Origin: Nitrosopumilus sp.
GTDB taxonomy: Archaea > Thermoproteota > Nitrososphaeria > Nitrososphaerales > Nitrosopumilaceae
Assembly: GCA_965249555.1 (NCBI GenBank)
Contig: OZ252243.1
Location: 1,760,001 to 1,824,000 of the forward strand
DNA: 64,000 bases
Direction: 5' to 3'
The notes under the pieces were generated by a model. It made no database searches, had not been told where the DNA came from, and worked only from the letters and a program-made list of their open reading frames with translations. Positions 11,416 to 58,201 of this stretch are shown here, piece after piece. The first letter of the stretch is position 1; every line of letters begins with the position of its first letter. A program made the position numbers and the translations under genes.

Positions 11416-12927
<1,512 letters not shown>

Positions 12928-17772: not shown

Positions 17773-18901
17773 GTGTTGTCTGAGTTAACTGATAAAATCA
17801 CAATATCTGAATCAAATCTGTCAAATGCAACAAAGAAAGACGATGATTTCAGGTTAGGGCAATTCTATAGGATCTCTCCAGTCAAATCAGACGATGAGCT
17901 AATTGATTGTCCAACTGACGAATTCCAAAAAATTCTAGTATCTTACACTAGATACTTGTTAAAGCGTGTCAACAATGATGATTTATCAGCAAATACTGTT
18001 CCCAAGATGTTTCGAGGTATTAGATGGCTGTTAAACTCCAATTATCGTGAAAATGACATCAAATGGAAGGCCTATTGAGGCTTTATTTCCAAAGTCAGTA
18101 AAGCGTACAGGTTACAAAGCATGGACTACAGAGCAGGTAGCCATAATGCTGGAGCACACAGGTAACCTGCGAAATAGGGCATTGATTCGCTTTCTAGCAT
18201 CTACTGGTGCAAGAGTTGGTATCCATGATCATCCCTTATTGGTAAAGCACCTAACCATGATGGATTGGAATGGACATGGTTGCTATGCTGTATTACTATA
18301 TGCTGATTATGATGAAACAGTAGAAGAAAGAGATTTGAGAGATAAACAAGATGATGTACAAAGTGGTGATTCATATTGGTCTTTTCTAACACCTGAAGCC
18401 ACTGAATCCCTTGACAAGTATTTTACAGAACGCAAAAGAGCAGGTGAATTCTTTGATGATAACACTCCAATCTTTCTAAAGGACAAACAAAGAGTGTATC
18501 TTGATTCAAAGCAACTGTCTGATACCAATGTTACTTCTATTCTCTTTAGAATAATCAAAGGTATGCCAGAATTAGACAGAATAAAGAAAGGAAGAGGACA
18601 TGACATTCAGATTAATCATGATTTTAGAAAAAGAATGAATACTATACTAAAGCTAGAATCAAAGATTAATTCCAATGTTGCAGAAAAGATACTAGGACAC
18701 AAGAACGGATTGGATGATGTTTATTTGGCACCTACCAGACAAGAATGTTTTATAGAGTTCTGCAAAGGTATTACACAATTAACGATTTCTGATATACAAA
18801 GACAAAAGATAACAATCAAACAACTAGAAGATGATAAAACACAACTTGATCAACTCAAAGCAGAGATAAAAGAAAATACTTCAAAATCTATCAGAAAATG
18901 A
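17773..18901 (+). pseudogene. Tyrosine recombinase/integrase, frameshifted
   Basis: Catalytic motifs STGAR, HDFRK, LGH and Y (DDVY). Removing one G at about 18069-18070 joins the two ORFs as ...DIKWKPIEALFPK.... Confidence 0.85.
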
Positions 18902-19586: not shown

Positions 19587-20678
19587 TAGCGAAGAGTCAA
19601 AGTTCGTGAACTAAAAATCATCAAAACAAAACACTTTTTGATCACCACACACAATGAAACACATGAACAAGTTAGAACAGCTTGAAGCAGCATACAAAAA
19701 GGAAAACTTCAAAGATATAGTCAGGATGCTTGCAGTACTAATGGTTCTCAAAGATGGCAAGGAATTAGAGTACACCGCACAAACACTGCACCGCTGTACA
19801 AACTGGGTACGCAAATGGGTTGATCGTTTTAACGTAGATGGCCTTGATGGCCTCTACGATCACCCAAGGAGTGAAAGACCATGTGTAATCCCAAAGAAGC
19901 AAATGAATTCTATTATGTTCAAAATTATGTTGACACTATTTACACCTGTAATGCTGCAGCAGACAATATTTGATTCTACTGGAATAAAATTTCACATAAC
20001 ACATGTCAGAAAAATAATGCGCCAGTATGGAATGTCTGCTAAAACTGCACAAAAATATCACGTTAATCATGCAAGTGTAACGGCTGTGCGCAGCTGGGCA
20101 GCAACGCATGAAAAAGAGAATTCCACGCCTAAAAAAGAGTGGATTCACCATTGCAATGCTTGATGAGGCATTCTTTGTTAGGGATGTAAAAGCAGGACGA
20201 AAATATTGGTCACCAGTTGCCAAAAGAATATTTCTCCCATATGTGGGAAACCATGAAAGTTTGGCAGTGTATGGAACAATTACAATCAATGGAGACCAAC
20301 TGTTTAGAATTTATAAAAAATTCAACGGTATAACATTTGTAGAATATCTAAAAGAGTTGCACTACAAATATGGTAAAATTGCGTTGATACTTGACAGGGC
20401 ATCAGTGCACAAATCAAAGAAGGTCAAGGACTTTTTGACAGATAATCCAGATGTTAAACTGATTTGGCTACCAAAAGGACCCACCATATCTAAACATGAT
20501 AGAGCAGTGTTGGAAAATAGGCAAGCATGTGTTGTTGGTATCAGAATATTATGCAATGTTTACAATAATGAATAATGCAGTGTCACAATACTTTGGAACA
20601 AAAAAATTCAAACTTGATGTTGTTAATTATATTTTTAGAAATCCTGCAAAGATGTTCACGAACTTTTGATCGTCGCTA
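19587..20678 (+). mobile_element. IS630-family insertion sequence
   Basis: Terminal inverted repeats TATAGCGAAGAGTCAAAGTTCGTGAAC (19585-19611) and 20654-20680 match at 23/27; TA target duplication at 19585-86 and 20679-80. Confidence 0.92.
19654..20668 (+). pseudogene. IS630 transposase (HTH + DDE), two frameshifts
   Basis: HTH (WVRKWVDRFNVDGLDGLYDHPRS), DDE (LDEA, LDRASVH, PYLNMIE in the shifted frame); +1 indels near 20097 (GGG) and 20480 (CCC). The 3' end is approximate. Confidence 0.85.
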
Positions 20679-21268: not shown

Positions 21269-21463
21269 TTATTGCTTGGATTTATTCAAATTACGTAAAA
21301 AATTTAGTAATTCAAAAAGTGTTGCTCTTCCATTATGATCAACATTGTCAAAATCATTTAAAAAATCATATGCATATTTATCGTCATAATTCCATATAGC
21401 ACTTAATCCCAATCTAAAATCGTATATATTTAACAATTGATTTGTTGATGATTCTATTGTCAT
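21269..21463 (-). CDS. Short hypothetical ORF or gene fragment
   Basis: 64-aa ORF with ATG start; no motif. Confidence 0.3.
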   Translation of the reverse strand: MTIESSTNQLLNIYDFRLGLSAIWNYDDKYAYDFLNDFDNVDHNGRATLFELLNFLRNLNKSKQ

Positions 21464-21503
21464 TCATTTAAACATATAAGACATTTTTTTCCAGTAAAAG
21501 AAA

Positions 21504-22031
21504 ATGGTTGAGAAACTTAAACCTCTACGTGATATTATTAAAAAAAATTTAAGAATATTATTTGTTGGAACTCGACCCGGAATTCGTTCATCGAAAACGG
21601 GCCATTATTTCCCAGGAAATTCTAATATGTTTTGGAAATTATTGTATCAATCAAAATTAACTGGAGAAATGCTTTCACATAAACAGGACTCAAAATTAAT
21701 TGAGTATAATTATGGTCTTACAGATATAGTGAAAAAACCAAAAATAAGTAACACGATTAATTTTACAGATACTCTTGATAGCACTAATAGATTAAATAGA
21801 TTATTAATCAAATTTCAACCCAAAATAGTATCTTTTGTTGGAAAAAGAGGATATCAGATTTACACTCAAAGACTAACTCAAAAATATGAATATGGATATA
21901 AAGGAAAATATTACAAAACCAGAATATGTCTTATCCCATCATCTAGTGGACAAAGTTATGCAGATACATCATATGATGAGAAATTACATTGGTATAAATC
22001 ACTTAAACGATATCTTGAAACTTTTTCTTAA
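21504..22031 (+). CDS. MUG/TDG-family mismatch-specific DNA glycosylase paralog lacking the catalytic Asn
   Basis: LFVGTRPG (canonical GxNPG), GHYF, NMFWKLL, GLTDIV, IPSSSG. Confidence 0.85.
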   Translation: MVEKLKPLRDIIKKNLRILFVGTRPGIRSSKTGHYFPGNSNMFWKLLYQSKLTGEMLSHKQDSKLIEYNYGLTDIVKKPKISNTINFTDTLDSTNRLNRLLIKFQPKIVSFVGKRGYQIYTQRLTQKYEYGYKGKYYKTRICLIPSSSGQSYADTSYDEKLHWYKSLKRYLETFS

Positions 22032-23028
22032 ATAGATTCAAGTTTAACACAGCTAATCTTTTATAATTTTCATCCAATAACTGTAAAGCTTTTTCTTCAT
22101 TTGTAGAATCTTTCACTTTGAATGCACCATAGCATAACAAAAGATATCCAAATTGTTTCCAATAAGGATCTATAAGGAAATTTTCTACCATAATAAATAA
22201 AGAATCAAAATCAAAACCCACATTATGATCTATTTTTGCAACTACTTTAGTACGGACAATAGATTCAAACTTGTTCATATCACGTAATTTGAAGTGTAAT
22301 TTGGAATGTGGCATGGGTGGCATTTGAAAAGATGATGTTTTCGTATTAGACACAATTTTTTTAGCAACATCTAAATCTGTTTCATAAACGTGAAAACTAC
22401 CGCTAAAATGATTATATTTCCCAAGTTCAAATTGGTCATATTTTGGTTTTAATCTGTTTTGAACATATTCCTGTAACATTGTAAAAATAAACAAGTCATA
22501 CGGAAGTACCTTAAGAGCATCTTGACTCCTCATATAGATGACAGATTGTACTTGATTTTGACGAATAAGATATTGTAAGTTCAAGGTACATGGAATTTCT
22601 TCATGAGGAAGACCATGTTGATCAAATTGAGGTAAATACACTGATGCCACAGCTCTGCGTTTTGATGGATCCTCATCCAAAACACGCAATATATGTTCCA
22701 TTTGATTAAGGTGTTGAATCCCAAAAAGCCTAGGTCCATATGCCCCAATCACTTTTATTCCATCTGAGGAATAATCTTTTGCCCTGGGAACATAATATTC
22801 AATTGCTTCTAAATTAAAATTACCTTGAGTTATCCATAAAAAATGTCCTATGCATTGAAAAATATTCAAAGGACAAGTTTCATCAAACAAAAGTCTATCG
22901 CGAGGATTTCGTAATTCAAATTTGTAGGAGACTAATTCTTTGATATTACGTTTAACATCTTTTCTTGTTACATTTTCACCATGGATGATTATGTCTGATA
23001 ACACATCTCTCCATTGTTTGTCCCACAA
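22003..23028 (-). CDS. Thymidylate-synthase-fold enzyme, predicted dCMP/CMP (hydroxy)methylase
   Basis: GAYGPR, SKRRAV, catalytic IPC, RSQD...LPYD (Asp at the E. coli ThyA Asn177 position), SFHVY. Start codon uncertain. Confidence 0.82.
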   Translation of the reverse strand: MWDKQWRDVLSDIIIHGENVTRKDVKRNIKELVSYKFELRNPRDRLLFDETCPLNIFQCIGHFLWITQGNFNLEAIEYYVPRAKDYSSDGIKVIGAYGPRLFGIQHLNQMEHILRVLDEDPSKRRAVASVYLPQFDQHGLPHEEIPCTLNLQYLIRQNQVQSVIYMRSQDALKVLPYDLFIFTMLQEYVQNRLKPKYDQFELGKYNHFSGSFHVYETDLDVAKKIVSNTKTSSFQMPPMPHSKLHFKLRDMNKFESIVRTKVVAKIDHNVGFDFDSLFIMVENFLIDPYWKQFGYLLLCYGAFKVKDSTNEEKALQLLDENYKRLAVLNLNLFKKKFQDIV

Positions 23029-23067
23029 ATATCATCACCAAATATCTAAATAATCATGAAATTATGA

Positions 23068-23571
23068 CTATTGGATTAGATTTAGTTTTACCAAGTCAAT
23101 TAGTATTTTGCGAACTAAAGATTCACTAAAATTTTTATATCCATAAGAGAGGTCTTGAAATAGATACCCTACAATTTCATCAAATTCTCTATCATGATAA
23201 TGTTCTTTTCGTATATAATATAATGATGCAGCAATTTCTAACCACTCTGTATCGTGTTTATATGGTTCTATTTTTTTTGCAAAATTAGCAATTTTTTCTT
23301 TGTTTAATCCTGTTTGTTCAGATGTAGATTCAACTTGCTGATCAATAATGCTATGGGCATCTTGAGAAACTTGTTTACAATATGGACCTCTAAGATACCA
23401 ATCAAATTCATAACCCAAATCAATACCAGATTCTTGTGCCAAGTAAGCAATTTTTTGAACTTTAAGCTTGTCATCAAATTCAGTCATTGAGATTTGTTTA
23501 TCAATTCCAGAGAAAAGCACTGCCAGTTTTTCCATATTTTCAGCCATTATTTCTGCCATAACCAAATTCAC
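23068..23571 (-). CDS. YwgA/SocA-like winged-helix protein
   Basis: VQKIAYLAQ...LGYEFDWYLRGPYC and LEIAASLYY patterns typical of YwgA/DUF4065-like proteins. Confidence 0.65.
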   Translation of the reverse strand: MNLVMAEIMAENMEKLAVLFSGIDKQISMTEFDDKLKVQKIAYLAQESGIDLGYEFDWYLRGPYCKQVSQDAHSIIDQQVESTSEQTGLNKEKIANFAKKIEPYKHDTEWLEIAASLYYIRKEHYHDREFDEIVGYLFQDLSYGYKNFSESLVRKILIDLVKLNLIQ

Positions 23572-24006
23572 TTAATTAAAGATTCGGTTGGACTAAGATT
23601 CATTATCTGATCGATTTTTGACAAAATTTTTACTTTTAGATCATCAAATGATACGTAATTAATGATGGAAATTCCTGGCATTCCCAATTACTATTTTGGA
23701 TAGTTTTCTTTCAGAATGGATACAAAATATTATTTTCCCTAAAGTATACGCATACATAATCTCAATACCTACACCAATACTAGGATTAGATACATCTGCG
23801 ATCATAATGTCACATGTTGAGATGGCATCAATATCTCTTCGATAGATTTCTTTAGAATCTAAATTAGGGTTAGGATCTTGCCATATGACCCATTTGGAAA
23901 CAATATCTAGATCTATTTCTTTTAACATCCCAACAAGTTTTTTAGCATATTCGATATCTCTATTGTGTATCAAAGGAGTTGATAAGTAAATTTTCACATT
24001 TTTCAT
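23568..24006 (-). CDS. Nucleoside 2-deoxyribosyltransferase / DNPH1(RCL)/MilB-like nucleotide N-glycosidase, C-terminal frameshift
   Basis: IYLS, RRDIDAISTCD, PSIGVGIE motifs. Deleting one C at 23683-85 restores ...IGMPGISIINYVSFDDLKVKI..., ending in a GTGA overlap with the next gene. Confidence 0.8.
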
Positions 24007-24118
24007 AAGAATTCATGAAATAAAAATTTACAAAATTTTGTTAATAACTTCCAACAAGATTGGATGCAAAATTAAACTTGCAGTACGTATATTTTGTAGA
24101 AGAATCAAATAAATTATT

Positions 24119-24661
24119 GTGAGAACGTTACCAGATCATGTTTTTCCAAACATGGATGTCCTATTTGTTGGGACAAATCCAGGTATTAAATCTGCAAGAA
24201 TAGGTCACTATTTTGCAGGAACAAGTAATATGTTTTGGAGACTTTTGTATGAATCAAAATTAACTGAAGAAAGATTGAGAACCGAATTTGATTTCAAAAT
24301 TACAAATTACGGTTACGGATTAACTGACGTAGTAAAACGTCCCACAAGATCTACATCAGAATTAAGAAAAGATGATGGAAGAGGTTCAAGAAAAAGACTT
24401 GATGGTATTGTTGAAGAAAACTCGCCAAAAGTGGTTGCTTTTGTTGGAAAAGCAGGTTTTAGATATTATCTAGGCGATAATACAATAGAACTTCAATATG
24501 GTAAACAAAATTTAGAAATAAACAAATCCAATGTGTATTTACTTCCATCCACTAGTGGTCAGAGTTTTGCAGACACAAAATATCATGAAAAGCTTCATTG
24601 GTATAGAACGTTAAAACGATACGTAAATAGATTTTTGAATTATTCTCAAATAACATCCTAA
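24119..24661 (+). CDS. mug: MUG/TDG-family G:U/T mismatch-specific DNA glycosylase
   Basis: LFVGTNPG with intact catalytic Asn, GHYFAG..NMFWRLL, GLTDVVKRPT, LPSTSG. Confidence 0.9.
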   Translation: MRTLPDHVFPNMDVLFVGTNPGIKSARIGHYFAGTSNMFWRLLYESKLTEERLRTEFDFKITNYGYGLTDVVKRPTRSTSELRKDDGRGSRKRLDGIVEENSPKVVAFVGKAGFRYYLGDNTIELQYGKQNLEINKSNVYLLPSTSGQSFADTKYHEKLHWYRTLKRYVNRFLNYSQITS

Positions 24662-25123: not shown

Positions 25124-25969
25124 ATGGAAATAATTGACAATTCTATAGTGGAACCTATTGAAATTCGAATGATTAGGCAATCTAAATTTCCAGTCAGATA
25201 TAAACTTCCCACAACTTCTCCCGAACTTGCAAATTTGAAATCTAGCATAAAAGAGCATGGATTACTACAACCTATTGTAATTAGGCCCATTGATCATGGA
25301 TTTGAGATAGTTGCAGGACATCGAAGATTCACCGCATGTAGATCACTGCATTGGAGATTCATCCCAAGTAAAATCAGGGATTTGTCTGATAAACAAGCAT
25401 ATGAAATTCAACTAACAGAGAACATTCAAAGAAAATCTATGGCACCTATAGAAGAAGCTGAAGCATATCAAAAATATGTTAATGAATTTGGTTGGGGTGG
25501 AGTAAGTGACCTTAGCCGAAAAATTGGAAAAAGTGAAGAGTATGTGTCTCATAGAATGCAGCTCTTAAAACTTTCAGATGATGTTAAAGAAAAGATAGTT
25601 CACAATGATTTGAGCGTAAGTCAGGCATTAGAACTAACTACTGTTGGCGCTTCACTGAAAAGTGAATTTGTAGATGAAATAGTAGACAACAAACTGACAG
25701 TAAAACAAATTAGAGTAATGAAAAAGAATGCTAAATCTGATCTATACAAACCAGTACCTAACAAAAATTCCAAGTCACTTAATTTGATAAAGAAAAGTAG
25801 TCTGGCACTAAAAATTACTCTCTCAAGAATTGATGACCTTATAGAAGACGCACATGGAATTCAACCAAAACAAAGAGTAGAATTGATAAAATTTTTGATG
25901 AGCCTCAGAATAAAGACTCATTCAATGATAGATGAAACTATCAAATTCAAAAAAGATTATTTAAAATAA
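25124..25969 (+). CDS. parB: ParB/Spo0J-family protein
   Basis: SIKEHGLLQPIVIRP, IVAGHRRF, ENIQRK and an HTH (LSRKIGKSEEYVSHRMQLL). Confidence 0.9.
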   Translation: MEIIDNSIVEPIEIRMIRQSKFPVRYKLPTTSPELANLKSSIKEHGLLQPIVIRPIDHGFEIVAGHRRFTACRSLHWRFIPSKIRDLSDKQAYEIQLTENIQRKSMAPIEEAEAYQKYVNEFGWGGVSDLSRKIGKSEEYVSHRMQLLKLSDDVKEKIVHNDLSVSQALELTTVGASLKSEFVDEIVDNKLTVKQIRVMKKNAKSDLYKPVPNKNSKSLNLIKKSSLALKITLSRIDDLIEDAHGIQPKQRVELIKFLMSLRIKTHSMIDETIKFKKDYLK

Positions 25970-25979
25970 TTTCTTTATC

Positions 25980-26519
25980 TTACAAACCAATAAATGGCGG
26001 TGTCCATTCTTTGAGAAATTTCTTGTATTCCTCTTCAGTATATGTCAGTGCATAAATTGATGCTTCTGTCTGTGGAACAAAGTCATAGATCTCATATACC
26101 TGAATAATATCTCCAAACAGATTTCGATAAATATCGTTTTCCTCATCTGCCATTTCATTTGACAAAAATGACTTGACTGTAATCCAATCGTATCTTCCTC
26201 GTGTTCTACCTGAAAACAAAACAAATGGTGCATCATTGAGATATTTTTTCAACCCATCTAGTCGTTTGGGAAGTGCTTGTGATGTTCTAAATGTAACAAG
26301 GTCTACACGTATGACTCTGTGTGGAATTTTCTTTGCATCTACAGTAATTGTATATCCTTTGATAATACCTTCTTCTTCAAGTTTTGATATTCTGGACTCT
26401 ATTTCTTCTTCTGTTAAATTGTAATTAAATCCCTTCAAAAAATCCCAAATCTCAAATACTTGTTGTTTTGAGTTTTGAGAAAGTGCTGAAATTATTAGCT
26501 CATCCACCTTGTCAATCAA
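25980..26519 (-). CDS. Lrp/AsnC-family transcriptional regulator
   Basis: IDKVDELIISALSQNS...RISKLEEEGIIKGYTI wHTH plus a RAM-like domain; divergent from the urea transporter. Confidence 0.8.
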   Translation of the reverse strand: MIDKVDELIISALSQNSKQQVFEIWDFLKGFNYNLTEEEIESRISKLEEEGIIKGYTITVDAKKIPHRVIRVDLVTFRTSQALPKRLDGLKKYLNDAPFVLFSGRTRGRYDWITVKSFLSNEMADEENDIYRNLFGDIIQVYEIYDFVPQTEASIYALTYTEEEYKKFLKEWTPPFIGL

Positions 26520-38951: not shown

Positions 38952-41900
38952 GTGAATAAAATGTTATTTAATGCGTTAGTGGGGGGGGGGGTTGTCCTGT
39001 TTGCCATATCACTTCTTGCAAGTGCTGAGGCTCAAGCCCCAATTGCACCTGTCCCTCCTGTAATTGAAGAAGGAGAAATCTTTTCGACAAACATTGAGAT
39101 TACATGGGGTGTGGTGGATGGTGCCACATCATACACAGTGTACAGAAACGGCGCTAACCGAGGAACTACTACTGATACATCATTCATTGATTATGGTTTA
39201 ACTCCTAATACAGAGTACACTTTTCGTGTCGTAGCACACAATAGTGCAGGCCAGACAGCAAACTCTGCTTTTTTTAAAGTATCTACCACATCTGCACCGA
39301 CCTCTTTTAGTGCCCCAGCACCAACTTATGCAGATACTCAGACGGCAATCGAGGACGGCACTATTAGTATTGAAAAGAATAATTCCAGAGACGATCAAAT
39401 AGATATATCTTTTGTACCGAAACAAGTCGGTGTATATTCTATTGAATATGGTGCTTTCAATACTGAAACTGTTAGTGTTAGTAGTGGTCAGACAGATATA
39501 CGTAAAGTTGTACCCCCAATAACGATAGGTTATGGTTTTGATCAAGATATCATCATTTCCTTTAGAGAAGGAACATCTGATCTAGTTGAAGTTGCAAGGG
39601 CACATGTAACGACTGTACCTACACCAACTCCTACACCTAGAGTAACAGATGTCACTTCGACAAGTATAACGATTGAATGGGATGCAGTGGCTGGTGCCGG
39701 ATACGATATCTTTAGAAATGGCGTGGAACAAATAACTATCACTGGTTCATCATACCATGATGATGAATTAGATCCCGAAACAACTTACACTTATACTATC
39801 AGACCAAATTACATAAACAATACTGTTGGGCCCACTTCTGCTCCATTGGTTGTAACCACCTTGGAATTACCACCTGCTACTCCAGCACTTGTACTGGGAG
39901 AAGTCACTGACACAAGTATAGCACTTTCATGGGGTGCAGTGGATAATGCCGACAGTTACACTTTGACCAGAATTGTTGCAGGCGGTAATATAGTAGTGGT
40001 ATCCAGCAATGTATTGACTGCCATTGATACTGGCCTGGCTCCTGCAACTGATTACAAGTATGTCATTGTGGCAACAAATACTGCCGGGACAAGTACTCCT
40101 TCTGCAGAGTTTGCAGCATCTACAACTGCAGCACCAATTGATACTACACCACCAGTAATCACAGTAACTCCAGAAGAAATCACTCTTGAACTAAACTCAC
40201 CTGCACCAACACTTCTTACTGGAGTCGAAACTGATGATGGCTCTGCAATTACTATATCCGGAACTGTTGATGTTACCACAGTAAACGATTACACTATCAC
40301 TTATTCCTCAACTGATGGTACAAACCCAGCTGTTGATAAAACCAGAATATACAAAGTAACTGATACCATACCACCAGTAATCACAGTAACTCCAGAAGAA
40401 ATAACTCTTGAACTAAACTCACCTGCACCAACACTTCTTACTGGAGTCGAAACTGATGATGGCTCTGCAATTACTATATCCGGAACTGTTGATGTTACCA
40501 CAGTAAACGATTACACTATCACTTATTCCTCAACTGATGGTACAAACCCAGCTGTTGATAAAACCAGAATATACAAAGTAACTGATACCATACCACCAGT
40601 AATCACAGTAACTCCAGAAGAAATAACTCTTGAACTAAACTCACCTGCACCAACACTTCTTACTGGAGTCGAAACTGATGATGGCTCTGCAATTACTATA
40701 TCCGGAACTGTTGATGTTACCACAGTAAACGATTACACTATCACTTATTCCTCAACTGATGGTACAAACCCAGCTGTTGATAAAACCAGAATATACAAAG
40801 TAACTGCAGCACCTGTCCCAATCCAGTTAAATACCATACAAATTAATCAGAATGCTAACGTTATAGATATATCATTTGTACCGCTTCTTGCCGGTACATT
40901 TGATATTTCATATGCTGGTTCAACCCCACAACCACAAACTATCGATTCGGCCCAAACAGGTACCGCTTTAGAGTTTTCGGTAACCCTCGATTCTGGTTTT
41001 GCCGGCAATGTCTGCATTGAATTTGATGGTGATGAGATTTCTTGCAGTACAATTCGGATTGAACCTGACGAACCCACACTTGTTCTCGGAGACGTTACTC
41101 ATGATACCATAGGGTTCACATGGAACTCTGTAAATAATGGCCACAATTATATTCTGACCAGAGTTATTGAGGGTACTGATAAAATAGTGGTAGAAGGCAT
41201 CAATGTACTTGCTGGCACTGATGATAACTTGGAACCTGAAACCGAGTACACATATGTAATTTCAGTGAGCACACCTGATGGTGACTTCAATGATGAATAT
41301 AGTCCGTTTTCTGTAACTACACTTGCAGCACCTGCTACTGAAACGCCGGCAATAGAGGCAAACTCTTTTGAGGTTACCAATCCGATAGATACAAACGCAT
41401 TACTTGTAGAGTTTGTAGCCTTAAAGGCAGGCACATTTACGATTACGGCAGGTGCGTTGACTGACACTGTTGATGTAACAGATACAGATGTAACAGATGC
41501 AGCAGTGAAAAGTAAACAGATAACAGTCAACCCTGAATTTGATGGCGATGTAATCCTCTCATTTGACGATGCGACAGTTGCAAGCACACCTGCATCTCTA
41601 CTTGCAATCAGGGCAGGCTCTTTTAGTTATACTGGAGATGCTGCTGGAGATGTAACTGTATCCTTTGTTCCGTTAAGGGCAGGCACATTTACAGTTGAGG
41701 CAGGTGATGCCAGCGATGACATAGTTGTTGGTACTGGCGATATAGGTAACACTGTATCATCCGATCCGCTATCCCTTGGCAATGGTTTTGATAGTACTAT
41801 TCTCATTTTATTGAATAATCATGTATATCTAAGGCCATCAGTATTGACTCTACCTGGCATCCCGACACTTGAGGTAGAAACCCCTACTCATAACAGTGTA

Positions 41901-43685
41901 ACGCTCTCATGGAATAGAATTGCCAGTGCAACAGGTTACGTACTGAGCAGAACTAGTGGCGGAGCAACAACTGAGATATCAGTCACTGGGATCTCATATG
42001 CTGATACCTTGGAACCTGAAACAACTTACATCTATTCCATAAGGACAGTGGCAGCAGCTGGAGACAGTGCCGCCTCTAATGTCGTGTCTGTAACTACACT
42101 TGCAGCACCAACTGATACAACTCCACCTGCCGCACCCGTACTTTCTGCAGGAACAACTACTGATACAACTATATCACTTTCATGGACTGCAGTGGATAAT
42201 GCCGACAGTTACACTCTGACCAGAATTGTTGATGGCATTAATGATGTTGAAGTGGCAACAGGCGATATATTGACTGCCACTGATACTGGCCTGTCTGCTG
42301 ATACAGATTACAAGTATACCATTACGGCAACAAATACTGCCGGGACAAGTGATCCTTCTGCCGAGTTTGATGCAAGGACTGATGCAGCCAATACAAACCC
42401 ATCACCTGCCGTGTACACTCTCAACGATACACCTCATGCTACTGACGGAGATAAAGTAGTTATAACCTTCACATCGTCACACACCGGTGATTTTACAATT
42501 GAATTTGATGGTGGTCGTACCATTGACTTTACAATTGATGATGCAGCCGTCCCATATATTCACACAGAAACAGTTGGGTATGATTATAATGGCAATATTA
42601 TCATTTCAATTGCCGGCGGTGCCGAGGTTGCAAGGGAATCTGTAACGACTGAACCTGAAAACCCAAAGAAAAAAGGTGGAGATTCTAATGAATGGAAAAC
42701 AAAGCCAACCTTTGGCAAACATTGGAATAATCAAGCAGTACAGCTAGTTGATGACGGCTTTGTCTTTAATGGCATGCCATTAACCATTACAAACAACTGG
42801 CACACTGACTTTAATATGACTAGCAGCATTATTGGTGATAACAATACAGTCCACATCAAAGGCTATGCAACAAATGGCCTAAAGTCCGTATCTCTATCCC
42901 TTGGAGTTCCAGAAGTTGGCCTGAAGACTAATGCAGAGTCCCACATTATAGTGAATGTAAATAGCAACTATACTAGTCCTGCAGGTTATGACATTGCAGA
43001 TATAGTCCATGAGCAAAAAGAGGGACTAGTAAATGAGGACATGACTAGCGCATCCATTGACAAAGTCAAATGTACATCATCAGATACTGCAGAGAGGTGC
43101 TTTGATGTTACCATATCATTTGTAATAATGGCACCATTATCCCATGAAGTATTGGCAATTAATGCAGTTGACAAACAACGTTACTCTACTACCACATATA
43201 TCAACGAAGGTGTAGAGTTTGTGGGAGAAGCATTACTTGCAGCAGCAACTCATGAGTTAAAACAAAAGCATGGCAACCAGAATCCGTTTGAGACCATATC
43301 ACTAACCCAGCAGGACAGACGTTACCAGGTCTGGGAGGACCAATATGGATACATATGGTCACAAAATGACTATGGCACCTGGTTGCAGATTACAAGACCT
43401 GATATGCAACAAAGAGATGATCTGCCAACAAGCGTAATGACTAGAATTCATTCAAACTTTGCAAATCTGGTAATTGATGAGCAGGATAGGGCAACCCTGA
43501 TCTTTGATAGTAAGGCAATTCAGGGAACCTTGGATGAATCATTCTCATATGATATGCCATTAAGACTGGACAGAGTATCAGATCCCGCATTGCTGGAATC
43601 ACTATCCATACAAGAGATGCTGGCCCAGGAGATGCTGTGTGACTGTATGATATATGATGACTCTGATCTTAGCTGGAATGACTAG
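38952..43685 (+). CDS. Giant secreted surface protein with fibronectin type III and Ig-like (DUF5011-like) repeats
   Basis: Signal peptide; several FN3 units (W..V.GA.SY.V...L.P.T.Y...V.A.N.AG); three DTxPPVIT Ig-like repeats; acidic, Thr-rich; non-repetitive C-terminal domain. Confidence 0.88.
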   Translation: MNKMLFNALVGGGVVLFAISLLASAEAQAPIAPVPPVIEEGEIFSTNIEITWGVVDGATSYTVYRNGANRGTTTDTSFIDYGLTPNTEYTFRVVAHNSAGQTANSAFFKVSTTSAPTSFSAPAPTYADTQTAIEDGTISIEKNNSRDDQIDISFVPKQVGVYSIEYGAFNTETVSVSSGQTDIRKVVPPITIGYGFDQDIIISFREGTSDLVEVARAHVTTVPTPTPTPRVTDVTSTSITIEWDAVAGAGYDIFRNGVEQITITGSSYHDDELDPETTYTYTIRPNYINNTVGPTSAPLVVTTLELPPATPALVLGEVTDTSIALSWGAVDNADSYTLTRIVAGGNIVVVSSNVLTAIDTGLAPATDYKYVIVATNTAGTSTPSAEFAASTTAAPIDTTPPVITVTPEEITLELNSPAPTLLTGVETDDGSAITISGTVDVTTVNDYTITYSSTDGTNPAVDKTRIYKVTDTIPPVITVTPEEITLELNSPAPTLLTGVETDDGSAITISGTVDVTTVNDYTITYSSTDGTNPAVDKTRIYKVTDTIPPVITVTPEEITLELNSPAPTLLTGVETDDGSAITISGTVDVTTVNDYTITYSSTDGTNPAVDKTRIYKVTAAPVPIQLNTIQINQNANVIDISFVPLLAGTFDISYAGSTPQPQTIDSAQTGTALEFSVTLDSGFAGNVCIEFDGDEISCSTIRIEPDEPTLVLGDVTHDTIGFTWNSVNNGHNYILTRVIEGTDKIVVEGINVLAGTDDNLEPETEYTYVISVSTPDGDFNDEYSPFSVTTLAAPATETPAIEANSFEVTNPIDTNALLVEFVALKAGTFTITAGALTDTVDVTDTDVTDAAVKSKQITVNPEFDGDVILSFDDATVASTPASLLAIRAGSFSYTGDAAGDVTVSFVPLRAGTFTVEAGDASDDIVVGTGDIGNTVSSDPLSLGNGFDSTILILLNNHVYLRPSVLTLPGIPTLEVETPTHNSVTLSWNRIASATGYVLSRTSGGATTEISVTGISYADTLEPETTYIYSIRTVAAAGDSAASNVVSVTTLAAPTDTTPPAAPVLSAGTTTDTTISLSWTAVDNADSYTLTRIVDGINDVEVATGDILTATDTGLSADTDYKYTITATNTAGTSDPSAEFDARTDAANTNPSPAVYTLNDTPHATDGDKVVITFTSSHTGDFTIEFDGGRTIDFTIDDAAVPYIHTETVGYDYNGNIIISIAGGAEVARESVTTEPENPKKKGGDSNEWKTKPTFGKHWNNQAVQLVDDGFVFNGMPLTITNNWHTDFNMTSSIIGDNNTVHIKGYATNGLKSVSLSLGVPEVGLKTNAESHIIVNVNSNYTSPAGYDIADIVHEQKEGLVNEDMTSASIDKVKCTSSDTAERCFDVTISFVIMAPLSHEVLAINAVDKQRYSTTTYINEGVEFVGEALLAAATHELKQKHGNQNPFETISLTQQDRRYQVWEDQYGYIWSQNDYGTWLQITRPDMQQRDDLPTSVMTRIHSNFANLVIDEQDRATLIFDSKAIQGTLDESFSYDMPLRLDRVSDPALLESLSIQEMLAQEMLCDCMIYDDSDLSWND
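38981..38991 (+). repeat. G11 homopolymer within the signal-peptide codons
   Basis: Eleven consecutive G in an AT-rich genome; the gene is currently in frame. Confidence 0.9.
40149..40806 (+). repeat. Three near-identical 222-bp tandem repeats (74-aa Ig-like domain)
   Basis: Units start at 40149, 40371 and 40593; only one synonymous difference seen (ATC/ATA). Confidence 0.95.
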
Positions 43686-56560: not shown

Positions 56561-58201
56561 CTATTTTTTTGACTTCTTTCTTTTGGCTTCTATTCTCTTT
56601 TCTGATTCGAATCTCTCTAAATCATATTCCTTCAAATCCACAAATTTCATAATTTTACTCAAATTAGGATGTACTTTGTTTATTTGTTTGAACATTTGTT
56701 GTGCAACCTGTCTGTAATCTGTATGTCCTTGTGGAATTGTTCTTAATTCAATTAGATGACAAGCTTCCCTAAGATTGAATTTCATAAAATATGGATAGTT
56801 GTATGCAAAATTTACAACATATTGTCCTTGTTCTGGATATTTTTTTCTAATCTTTTCAAATGTTTCTTTGGTTTTATTCATGGAATCCTTAAAGTCTTTT
56901 TCAATTCCAAGAATCTTGATTTCATTTGGAATATTATATCCATGATCCGTTGTCAAAAGTTGTCTTTCTAGAGTTAAAGCTCTATGTCTATGAAGGTCTC
57001 TGAACATTCCAAAGTTATTACACAAATCAAACGTATAGTAGATGTTTTCAAATGCCCTTGATGGCCTATGACGTCTATTTGTTCGAAGTTTTACAAATTC
57101 ACCGATTATTTTGGTTTTCTTTTCTTTTGAAAATTTTCTTACTTGCTGTAAAATATTTTGATATGATGTACTTGGTGACTGTTCATACAATATACTTGTG
57201 ATAATTTTATCCATTGCAGTTTTTTCTGATTCATAATCAACAAGATTTGTTATTACCCCCTTGGTTGATTTTGATTTAATTTCTTTTAGTGTAATTGATT
57301 TTGATTTATTTTTAATATCCTTAAGATACTTTTGAAATGCTTTACCATATTTGTCATCTGCTCGTCTAACAAATGATTTGATGGTTGTATCGAGTTCTTT
57401 TTTGATTTTTGAGGCTAAATCTTGCTCTTCTCTTAGTTCAGATGAGCTTAAAATTGTTAGAAGATATTCAAATGCACGGCCATTACCTGTGATTCCAACA
57501 TTTGTCAAAGTTGATGCAGGTAATAATCCTCTAAGAATATCAAGTGCTTTAGCTTTTGTTGAACCTTTGTAAATCATATTGGCAGATTTTACATCGCCTT
57601 CATTTTTTAATTTAGAAAATAGTTTTTCTTTCCCATCTGCTGAATCTTTAAAACTATATTTTTCTATAGGATATTTTTCTCTGACATAGTTTACCATTGG
57701 TTCTATGTTTTTTGAATAAATATCAAATGAAAAATTACAAGTCTCTTCATACATATCTGCAAACCTTGATTTTCTAATTTCAGGATCTCTGTAAAATCTA
57801 TACTTTCCTTTTTCTTTTTTATTCCATACCACATATCTTGAAGATTTTTCTAAATAAGATAAACCAATTCTTCTGTCCTCAATTTTTTTTACCGCAATGT
57901 TTGACAAACCTTCAATTGCAATTTGTGCTTCACCTAACTCTGCAACTGAATCATCACCGTATTCTAAAAGAACTCTGTTGTAAAATTCCTCACCTCTGTT
58001 TTTATTTTTTAAAAACTCATCAAGAAAAATTCTTCTCATACTTTTATTGGTTCTACTATATCTTGACATCAGTGCTCCACGATCAACTTGTTTAGGAGTA
58101 ATTATTGCAAATACATTGTTGCCAGTATTTGAAAAGTGGTCTGATAGAATCTTTTTTTCTTTAATTGAAAACTCTGACAACACCAGTGTGCAGTTTTTCA
58201 A
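56561..58201 (-). CDS. thyX: FAD-dependent thymidylate synthase (tandem ThyX domains)
   Basis: [39 protein letters not shown]; start may be TTG at about 58180. Confidence 0.9.

Follow-up and report, generated by a model that had tools for sequence, protein, structure and literature searches.

Enzymes of the thymidylate synthase (TS) fold that modify C5 of cytosine nucleotides are known from small-molecule pathways, where MilA, the CMP 5-hydroxymethylase of mildiomycin, with MilB (roles in PMC5175136 and PMC4081090) and BcmA with BcmB join a TS-fold enzyme to an N-glycosidase of the NDT family and free 5-hydroxymethylcytosine is released, and from phages, where T4 gp42 makes 5-hydroxymethyl-dCMP and RB69 gp48 is a verified 5-hydroxy-dCMP synthase; replacement of D169 (E. 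coli numbering) by Asn is the published signature of the flavin/O2-dependent 5-hydroxy-dCMP synthases (PMC13326640). Glycosylases of the uracil-DNA glycosylase (UDG) superfamily protect against modified-base phages in Brig1 (PMC11078745) and in Brig3 with BapA (PMC13160076), where the phages concerned carry 5-hydroxymethylcytosine (5hmC) or glucosyl-5hmC, and the Dag1/2 glycosylases likewise defend against modified-base phages (10.1101/2025.10.29.685425). A transcription unit with a TS domain has been validated as defensive in E. coli, the legend adding deoxynucleoside monophosphate (dNMP) kinase, 5hmdU-kinase and NMAD domains (PMC13092281). Here we describe a five-gene cassette of Nitrosopumilus sp., located in a 64-kb window (the whole stretch of DNA analysed, G000:C1:1760001-1824000 of a single-contig, 2.23-Mb genome), in which a MilA-like TS-fold protein, a small YwgA-like protein, two glycosylases of the MUG/TDG type and an NDT/DNPH1-like gene stand together.

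The grouping of these five genes is not chance, and the cassette is horizontally mobile. With about even confidence, we read it as a self-contained, horizontally moving nucleotide-modification conflict module of the Nitrosopumilaceae, for which we infer a role in defence. Unusual in it are the absence of the catalytic Glu from its TS clade, the Ser at the active site of one MUG type, the pairing of a nucleotide enzyme with a protein that resembles the C-terminal domain of DarG, and two TS chemistries, by residue type, in one genome. The combination of genes is undescribed in the literature searched, the supplements of PMC13092281 (table S8) and PMC8832971 lying outside that scope.

Gene content, linkage and mobility of the cassette

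The five open reading frames (ORFs) lie where a first-pass annotation, made from the letters of the window, had placed them (Table 1). Pfam matches were judged against curated bit-score cut-offs, which are passed by MUG1, the TS-like protein, the NDT/DNPH1-like product and MUG2. Because every protein falls short of the NCBIfam equivalog cut-offs (for TS by far, with 74 bits against 174.55; MUG1 and MUG2 score 81 and 97 bits against 144), we treat them as family members and not as orthologues of named enzymes. The NDT-like, YwgA-like and TS-like genes form an operon in which the stop codon of NDT, in its intact form, shares bases with the GTG that starts the YwgA-like gene (GTGA). MUG2 is divergent from this operon and MUG1 is convergent with the TS-like gene, the 3' ends overlapping by 29 nt.

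Table 1. Features of the window, numbered from its first letter, and sites of the TS-like protein, named by their E. coli / MilA counterparts and numbered by residue (pI, isoelectric point)
Feature	Position	Strand	Description	Pfam score (cut-off)
Mobile five-gene module	21456..24644		stretch common to the window and a related strain of ~97% identity	
MUG1	21504..22031	+	family-2 (MUG/TDG) UDG-superfamily protein, 175 aa, pI 9.9	UDG, 54.2 bits (24.3)
TS-like	22003..23028	-	putative MilA-like TS-fold pyrimidine-nucleotide C5-modifying enzyme, 341 aa	Thymidylat_synt PF00303, 54.1 bits (24.3)
YwgA-like	23068..23571	-	DarG C-terminal (DarT-binding) domain fold, 167 aa, acidic, pI 4.9	
NDT/DNPH1-like	23568..24006	-	nucleotide N-hydrolase gene, frameshifted	Nuc_deoxyrib_tr PF05014, 49.2 bits (28.8)
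MUG2	24119..24661	+	canonical family-2 (MUG/TDG) glycosylase, 180 aa, pI 9.7	UDG, 63 bits (24.3)
ThyX	56561-58201		546 aa, two Thy1 stretches, thus tandem/extended, unlike single-domain ThyX	
TS-like site C146 / C155	C147		nucleophile; Cys in 246/246 aligned homologues	
TS-like site R126' / K133'	R124		deoxy type (Lys in MilA)	
TS-like site S167 / A176	S168		deoxy type (Ala in MilA)	
TS-like site N177 / D186	D178 in LPYD		cytosine type	
TS-like site L143	E144		acidic, as in hydroxymethylases and hydroxylases	
TS-like site D169	D170 in RSQD (R167, S168, D170)		not the D169N hydroxylase signature	
TS-like site H207, Y209 / H216, Y218	H213, Y215 in HVY		conserved	

Eight cassette loci, all from Nitrosopumilaceae, were compared: the window, a second locus of its own genome (L002), L009/L010, L011/L099, L012, L013, L014 and L015. 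The YwgA-like gene stands directly upstream of the TS-like gene at 8/8 loci (diverged in L014). A convergent MUG1-type gene lies downstream of the TS-like gene at seven (split in L011/L099, absent from L014), and a MUG2-type gene occurs within about 3 kb at seven (absent from L002, displaced 3 kb by insertion sequence (IS) elements in L014); at least one MUG/TDG-type glycosylase flanks the operon at every locus and two do so at 6/8, while the NDT gene is present at 2/8. Protein identities between the loci are 43-70%, and the flanks differ from locus to locus, with unrelated housekeeping genes and with transposases as frequent neighbours. The genes recur together in other genomes, so the possibility of a chance assembly, which had been raised for the window, falls away.

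The second, diverged cassette of the same genome (C1:833271-835297) encodes a YwgA-like protein of 158 aa, a TS-like protein of 334 aa with 53% identity to that of the window and a convergent MUG1-type protein of 178 aa; it is without NDT and MUG2. The TS-like gene is rare, found in 1/200 other genomes of the family and 1/400 other genomes of the phylum sampled. MUG2 as a query matched 5/200 other family genomes (including G077, flagged unpublished), with close matches in only two: G109, which carries the whole cassette, and G080, a decayed copy in which MUG2 contains a stop codon and has a cassette-type YwgA-like gene, but no TS-like gene, next to it. Outside its cassettes the genome of the window has no MUG; a single further UDG-superfamily gene lies at 260 kb. 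Among metagenomic protein clusters, 12/28 of the MUG1 type share the size of their longest contig with a TS-like cluster, a heuristic that gives only a hint of co-occurrence.

Contigs of the related strain (runs X4 and X7) have loose ends at 21456 and 24644 and unlike sequence beyond both; since they match the window solely over this stretch, the five genes move as a 3.19-kb unit. The guanine-cytosine (GC) content of the module is 26.5-31% (21-25 kb), against about 33-35% in the surrounding stretches. Terminal inverted or direct repeats were not found at the module ends, the MUG paralogues themselves aside.

The NDT/DNPH1-like gene is a pseudogene in the window strain, optional and decaying. 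Its annotated ORF (23659-24006) encodes 115 aa, with the C-terminal part continuing in another frame to the stop at 23568-23570, as a 1-nt insertion near 23688 shifts the reading. A sequencing run of the same organism, about 6000 deep, carries the frameshift too; the related-organism contigs (runs X4 and X7) are without the base at 23688, which leaves the frame open, and L009 has an intact orthologue of 133 aa. The best solved relatives of the product are Rcl/DNPH1, hydrolases of 5hm-dUMP, to which it is weakly matched (E-value 2.7e-6), the PS.GVG.E catalytic motif aligning together with its Glu; unlike them, it is frameshifted, and it is missing from most cassettes. The strain comparison, in which 40 of 60 differences between the window and the related strain are listed, gives 2 synonymous and 8 non-synonymous differences in NDT, one of them inside the PS.GVG.E motif, and 9 synonymous and 5 non-synonymous differences in the YwgA-like gene. 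The first-pass annotation had made DNPH1-like nucleotide sanitation part of the system; with the gene optional and a pseudogene here, sanitation is not core to it.

The TS-like enzyme and the glycosylases

The closest solved relative of the TS-like protein is MilA (5b6d, E-value 5.9e-28, residues 29-260), followed by the phage enzyme 9iqu (1e-10), which is identical to RB69 gp48 in the aligned part, by ThyA proteins (1e-7 to 1e-5) and by T4 dCMP hydroxymethylase (2.8e-5); the protein also matches phrog_5131 (E-value 7e-42). Residue positions were transferred from the MilA alignment and from 246 homologues aligned with MAFFT, and were read against PMC5175136 and PMC13326640. The PC, RSxD and HxY motifs are kept and Asp occupies the site of E. 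coli N177, as had been noticed from the letters. The features of canonical ThyA, Asn at 177 and a hydrophobic residue at 143, are replaced by D178 and E144, and the ribonucleotide determinants of MilA/BcmA, Lys133' and Ala176, by R124 and S168; R125, beside R124, is a further key residue. The residue set of T4-type dCMP hydroxymethylases is present in full (D178, S168, R124, E144, D170). With Asp at the N177 site, the Arg/Ser deoxy determinants and Glu at the L143 site, as is usual for enzymes with non-methyl products, the best residue-based prediction is a dCMP C5-hydroxymethylase-type activity, with 5-hydroxymethyl-dCMP as the predicted product. The D169N signature (RSQN) occurs in the paralogue L002 of the same genome and in L013 and L014, and the window copy has RSQD; for the D169N-type enzymes of these sister cassettes the product would be 5-hydroxy-dCMP. 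Because the ThyX at the position given in Table 1, where the first-pass annotation had also found it, serves as the housekeeping enzyme, the TS-like protein is surplus to dTMP synthesis.

Set beside MilA, the cassette enzyme is alike in length and C-terminal extension and has the same Cys nucleophile and H/Y pair, with Asp where E. coli has N177 and an acidic residue in place of L143, but it differs in its ribose determinants (Arg/Ser, not Lys/Ala) and in having His/Gln for Glu68. An NDT-family hydrolase shares the operon in some cassette copies, as in MilA/MilB and BcmA/BcmB; the cassette differs from these pathways in that it is without an antibiotic gene cluster, NDT is optional, and a DarG-C-terminal-domain-like partner and MUGs are added. 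With T4 gp42 and RB69 gp48-type enzymes it shares the superfamily, N177D and L143E, but the similarity is distant, it is encoded by a mobile cellular gene and not by a virus, the cassette is without dNMP kinase, dCTPase and glycosyltransferase, the E58 site holds His/Gln, and the cassette clade contains both D169 and D169N forms.

A quick maximum-likelihood tree (IQ-TREE) was built from 80 of about 252 TS sequences, with branch support by the SH-like approximate likelihood ratio test (SH-aLRT). The sequences with His/Gln at the site of the catalytic Glu form one group (SH-aLRT 98), and a tight inner clade of 38 rows (SH-aLRT 100) contains every sequence of the tree that comes from a Nitrosopumilaceae locus. 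The site is His/Gln in 43/44 cassette-clade rows of the tree, with Thr in one further row outside it, and Glu in 24 bacterial-clade rows; the other catalytic and substrate-binding residues are invariant. The N-type (D169N) sequences fall essentially into one subclade (SH-aLRT 96), and the enzyme of the window and its genomic paralogue stand in different subclades, which makes them separate acquisitions and not the products of a recent duplication. Seventeen longer TS homologues carry no Pfam domain besides TS.

Among 80 loci taken from 208 IMG/VR relatives, no viral TS relative is close (top identity 37%), and GenBank phages match at <=30% identity over long matches. Across 83 viral and plasmid loci (L016-L098), no MUG, YwgA-like or NDT relative was found within about 6 kb of the TS homologue. 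Relatives that keep the Glu (33-35% identity) occur on plasmids of Leptospira and Brucella intermedia. In two loci (L016 4992-7553 and L017 4974-6882) plasmid TS relatives are paired with genes for aGPT-Pplase3/ADDT (amino-acid:DNA-transferase) and an ImmA/IrrE peptidase; these plasmid TS/aGPT-Pplase3/ADDT sets are a cellular DNA-hypermodification-type module.

Both glycosylases align end to end with characterised family-2 enzymes, MUG1 with human TDG (E-value 6e-19) and E. coli MUG (5e-17), and MUG2 with E. coli MUG (2.8e-22) and human TDG (2e-20). They share with these the GxxPG and PSxSG motifs and the TDG-like GH(Y)F.G..N.FW motif, and differ in being paired on a mobile cassette and, for the MUG1 type, in having Ser (Arg in the window) for the catalytic Asn. 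MUG2 keeps this Asn (GTNPG), as do 7/7 MUG2-type orthologues. The MUG1-type motif is GTSPG in 5/6 loci and GTRPG in the window. The motif could be located in 24/28 metagenomic clusters of MUG1 homologues: 21 have Ser, one (the window lineage) has Arg, and two have Asn, these last being the lowest-scoring and probably of the MUG2 type. Since the remaining active-site motifs are conserved, the MUG1 type is a Ser variant in its own right, maintained rather than randomly degraded. A pocket residue of MUG1 (AG[H/K/P/N]SN) was also considered as co-varying with the D/N type of the TS and was dropped, as no clean pattern emerged in six loci.

The predicted YwgA-like partner and the genomic setting

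No Pfam family was assigned to the YwgA-like protein: nothing meaningful was found at E-values up to 1, PF13274 was unmatched across 28 members, and the nearest Pfam-named Atlas cluster (score 0.82) has PF13274 on 13% of its members. An AlphaFold model computed from 28 homologues (predicted local distance difference test (pLDDT) 92.4) has the fold of the DarG C-terminal domain (7yk3_D; VIA-align Z 10.6, root-mean-square deviation 3.5 A over 141 residues, with the next entry at Z 4.6; Foldseek probability 0.99). By sequence the likeness is faint, DarG models matching at an E-value of about 1e-6 and a profile against the PDB giving 0.069. W58, R61, G62, P63, Y64 and C65 are invariant in the family. 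There is no macrodomain, the fold being like the C-terminal domain only, and DarT models matched 0/10 of the cassette and flanking proteins scanned. The C-terminal domain of DarG reportedly neutralises DarT by mimicry of single-stranded DNA, to go by the title of the structure paper.

With DarTG and Panacea (PanA) systems the YwgA-like protein shares the whole-protein fold, the first place in the operon and a multi-copy, promiscuous pairing, and its GPY is reminiscent of the GPV that marks Panacea antitoxins (PMC8832971). It differs in being without a macrodomain, a DarT and a PF13274 match, and in having a TS-fold nucleotide enzyme as its partner; no TS-type partner was found in the main text of the Panacea paper, where 'thymidylate' has 0 occurrences (PMC8832971). 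The first-pass annotation had listed a YwgA-like gene, which is indeed directly upstream of the TS-like gene throughout, but had overlooked this toxin-antitoxin-like logic, both the DarG fold and the predicted binding to the TS.

One YwgA-like chain was modelled in complex with a pair of TS-like chains, an alignment being given for each, in three runs with three controls. The runs scored 0.64, 0.63 and 0.66 and the best of the controls 0.00; the runs share at least 73% of their contacts, and the pLDDT of the partner is at least 80. The score mark applied is reached by 58/80 solved complexes and 2/110 mismatched pairs, and is only roughly valid here, the alignments being our own and the TS-like chain being present in two copies. 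On the YwgA-like side the predicted interface comprises residues 57-60, 64, 66 and 69, that is, the invariant motif, and on the TS-like side residues 111-119, 192-198 and 242-246. The YwgA-like protein is thus predicted by the models to bind the TS-like protein through its invariant motif.

Relatives of the YwgA-like protein are widespread beyond the cassette, occurring in 33/200 other genomes of the family (including G092, flagged unpublished) in up to 16 copies per genome. At 19/26 loci examined, a same-strand ORF of 55-220 aa directly follows the relative, and 17/19 of these ORFs are without a Pfam match; TS-like, MUG and NDT relatives occur at none of these loci. The genome of the window has such a pair itself, at C1:171716-172090 (L008 1453-1917 and 1902-2144). 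From its sequences, with the small ORF overlapping or abutting, this wider superfamily (L008, L115-L140) looks like an uncharacterised toxin-antitoxin-like family and behaves like a promiscuous antitoxin family. At L124 (74-2253), a YwgA-like relative of 289 aa directly follows a gene for an AAA_21/OLD-like ATPase, a defence-type neighbour.

Near the module, the window holds genes for CdvA, the tandem-domain ThyX and arginyl-tRNA synthetase. The module had been placed in an integrase island, which is not established: two overlapping ORFs directly after the arginyl-tRNA synthetase gene (17773-18901) match PF00589 only weakly (19.5 bits, below the cut-off of 27.1), no tRNA gene was found within the 64-kb window, and flanking repeats were not found either. 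An IS630-like transposase at 19654-20575 is encoded in two overlapping frames, with helix-turn-helix (HTH) domains and then DDE_3; either the frameshift is programmed or the copy is broken. A similar HTH ORF adjoins the L014 cassette. Just outside the module, a ParB-like protein (ParB_N and HTH_ParB, 25124-26519) lies beside a 179-aa protein without a Pfam family, and neither gene is kept with the cassette at other loci. Farther away, 11416-12927 encodes a 503-aa protein with collagen triple-helix repeats (Pfam E-value 8e-55) at a local GC peak of 45%, and a probable surface protein of 1577 aa, in which fibronectin-III and Ig-like domains are recognised, is encoded at 38952-43685 in a stretch of about 40-43% GC.

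Proposed function and rival explanations

In the reading that we favour, substrate, product, regulation and glycosylase targets would be as follows. The core operon would follow the order of a toxin-antitoxin pair, with the acidic DarG-C-terminal-domain/Panacea-like YwgA-like protein first and the TS-fold enzyme second. The latter would convert dCMP to 5-hydroxymethyl-dCMP (window type) or to 5-hydroxy-dCMP (D169N type), and the YwgA-like protein would bind it directly and probably control its activity. One or two MUG/TDG glycosylases, a canonical Asn enzyme and a conserved Ser variant, would act on DNA, their likely substrates being incorporated modified cytosine or its deamination products 5hmU:G and 5hoU:G. 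The DNPH1-like hydrolase would be an optional extra that clears modified dNMPs, now decaying in the window strain. The likeliest role would be antiviral or inter-element conflict, by poisoning or marking the deoxycytidine pool and then processing the DNA that results. To Brig1/Brig3, Dag1/2 and the TS unit of DefensePredictor the cassette is likened by principle alone, that of glycosylases or TS-domain enzymes in conflict over modified bases; the partners differ, being BapA for Brig3 and dNMP kinase with 5hmdU kinase and NMAD for the TS unit.

Several findings weigh against this reading. At the site of the catalytic Glu (E. coli E58, MilA E68) the window enzyme has H62; the cytosine switch and deoxy determinants behind the proposed dCMP-type specificity are present, but with the Glu replaced by His the activity or cofactor may differ from the prediction. 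RB69 gp48, the verified 5-hydroxy-dCMP synthase, keeps Glu at the E58 site, and loss of Glu58 as a hydroxylase signature was rejected on that ground. Of the two MUG glycosylases proposed from the letters, both are family-2 members and MUG2 has its Asn, but MUG1 is without it, Arg standing at that position in the window. The module encodes no dNMP kinase or dCTPase, and hence no route of modified dCMP into DNA. The contact list of the predicted complex is missing the catalytic residues of the TS-like protein, and as the interface holds none of them, inhibition by the YwgA-like protein is not implied by the model. Copies of the cassette are decaying: NDT in the window, a split TS in L015, a split MUG1 in L011/L099 and a stop codon in MUG2 of G080. 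PADLOC, in a bacteria-centred edition of 2023 that predates Brig, gave no hit for the TS-like, NDT and MUG proteins, and three weak matches among 43 neighbouring proteins (mad8 at 1.5e-7, CARF3--CARF_TM and Drt1b at about 5e-4). With matches so few and weak, guilt by association with defence islands is not established, and the nearby defence genes that the first-pass annotation had suggested looking for are not consistently there.

A more specific form of the conflict module is doubtful: a 'mark-and-excise' immune module of archaea, in which a DarG-like hold on the TS is released at infection, the dCMP pool is converted and the MUGs destroy the marked viral genome. In uninfected cells the YwgA-like protein would hold the dCMP hydroxymethylase (in sister cassettes, the dCMP hydroxylase). 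DNA made at infection would be starved of C or marked with 5hmC or 5-hydroxycytosine (5hoC), and the MUG pair, an Asn enzyme with a Ser-variant reader or enzyme, would strip marked bases from the viral genome as it replicates. Arms-race diversification of the mark would then account for the D169/N169 toggle and the repeated His/Gln switches, with the two chemistries coexisting in one genome. Modification of self DNA is somewhat less probable still. In that case the TS-like enzyme feeds 5hm-dC or 5ho-dC into host or element DNA for protection, the MUGs repair 5hmU:G and 5hoU:G, and the YwgA-like protein is a chaperone or regulator; this would suit the dCMP-type residues, the DNA hypermodification gene sets in which phage and plasmid relatives of the TS clade sit, and a host without another family-2 UDG, where a modifier would need its own repair. 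It sits poorly with 8/8 loci being without dNMP kinase, dCTPase, glycosyltransferase or any other downstream modification gene, with the rarity, patchiness and frequent decay of the cassette, which a genome-wide modification system would not be expected to show, and with a partner from an antitoxin-like family. We consider it unlikely that the MUGs are Brig-like effectors that excise viral modified C or U while the TS/YwgA-like pair senses viral modified dNMPs. Glycosylases of the UDG superfamily are an established defence against phages with 5hmC or glucosyl-5hmC (PMC11078745, PMC13160076). In addition, His/Gln for the catalytic Glu could favour trapping over turnover, and TS mutants at Glu60 reportedly accumulate a covalent intermediate; yet the rest of the catalytic and substrate residues are invariant, the D/N toggle at D169 is expected of an active enzyme whose product matters, and by sequence the cassette MUGs are ordinary family-2 proteins and not relatives of Brig.

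A plain toxin-antitoxin pair, in which the TS-like protein would arrest growth as the toxin, the YwgA-like protein would counter it and the MUGs would be repair cargo without functional interplay, is given the same low probability as the Brig-like effectors. The antitoxin-first order, the predicted binding, the DarG C-terminal domain fold and the many two-gene pairs that the YwgA-like superfamily forms with unrelated small ORFs all speak for it, but such MUGs occur almost only beside this operon (3/3 in the genome of the window), the sole two close matches to MUG2 in 200 other family genomes (G109, G080) adjoin a cassette-type YwgA-like gene, and the MUG linkage is kept across the 43-70% range of protein divergence. 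The acidity of the YwgA-like protein (pI 4.9) beside the very basic MUGs (pI 9.7-9.9) would fit a Ugi-like DNA mimic that inhibits toxic MUG effectors, with the TS-like protein supplying or sensing the trigger; the YwgA-TS complex, the sole pair modelled, passed using the invariant motif, and we find this explanation very improbable. Least credible is a small-molecule pathway on the pattern of MilA/MilB or BcmA/BcmB, in which free 5-hydroxymethylcytosine, destined for a metabolite, would be released by the TS-like protein and an NDT-type N-glycosidase: MilA is the closest solved relative and an NDT-family gene is in the operon at 2/8 loci, but both ribose determinants are of the deoxy type (R124, S168), NDT is absent from 6/8 loci and a pseudogene here, tailoring and export genes are lacking, and a pathway of this kind would have no use for two DNA glycosylases.

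If the conflict module is as we read it, the cassette would hold the first cellular, rather than viral, TS-fold dCMP modifier under antitoxin-like control with dedicated DNA glycosylases. It would also supply a MUG/TDG active site in which Ser occurs naturally, a TS clade devoid of the catalytic Glu and a new class of partner for DarG-C-terminal-domain/Panacea-like proteins, and its glycosylases and dCMP modifiers could serve as reagents to detect 5hmC and 5hoC. Little is known of the antiviral repertoire of ammonia-oxidising archaea, which are among the most abundant microbes in the sea; immunity by glycosylases (Brig/Dag) and through the nucleotide pool would be extended to them.

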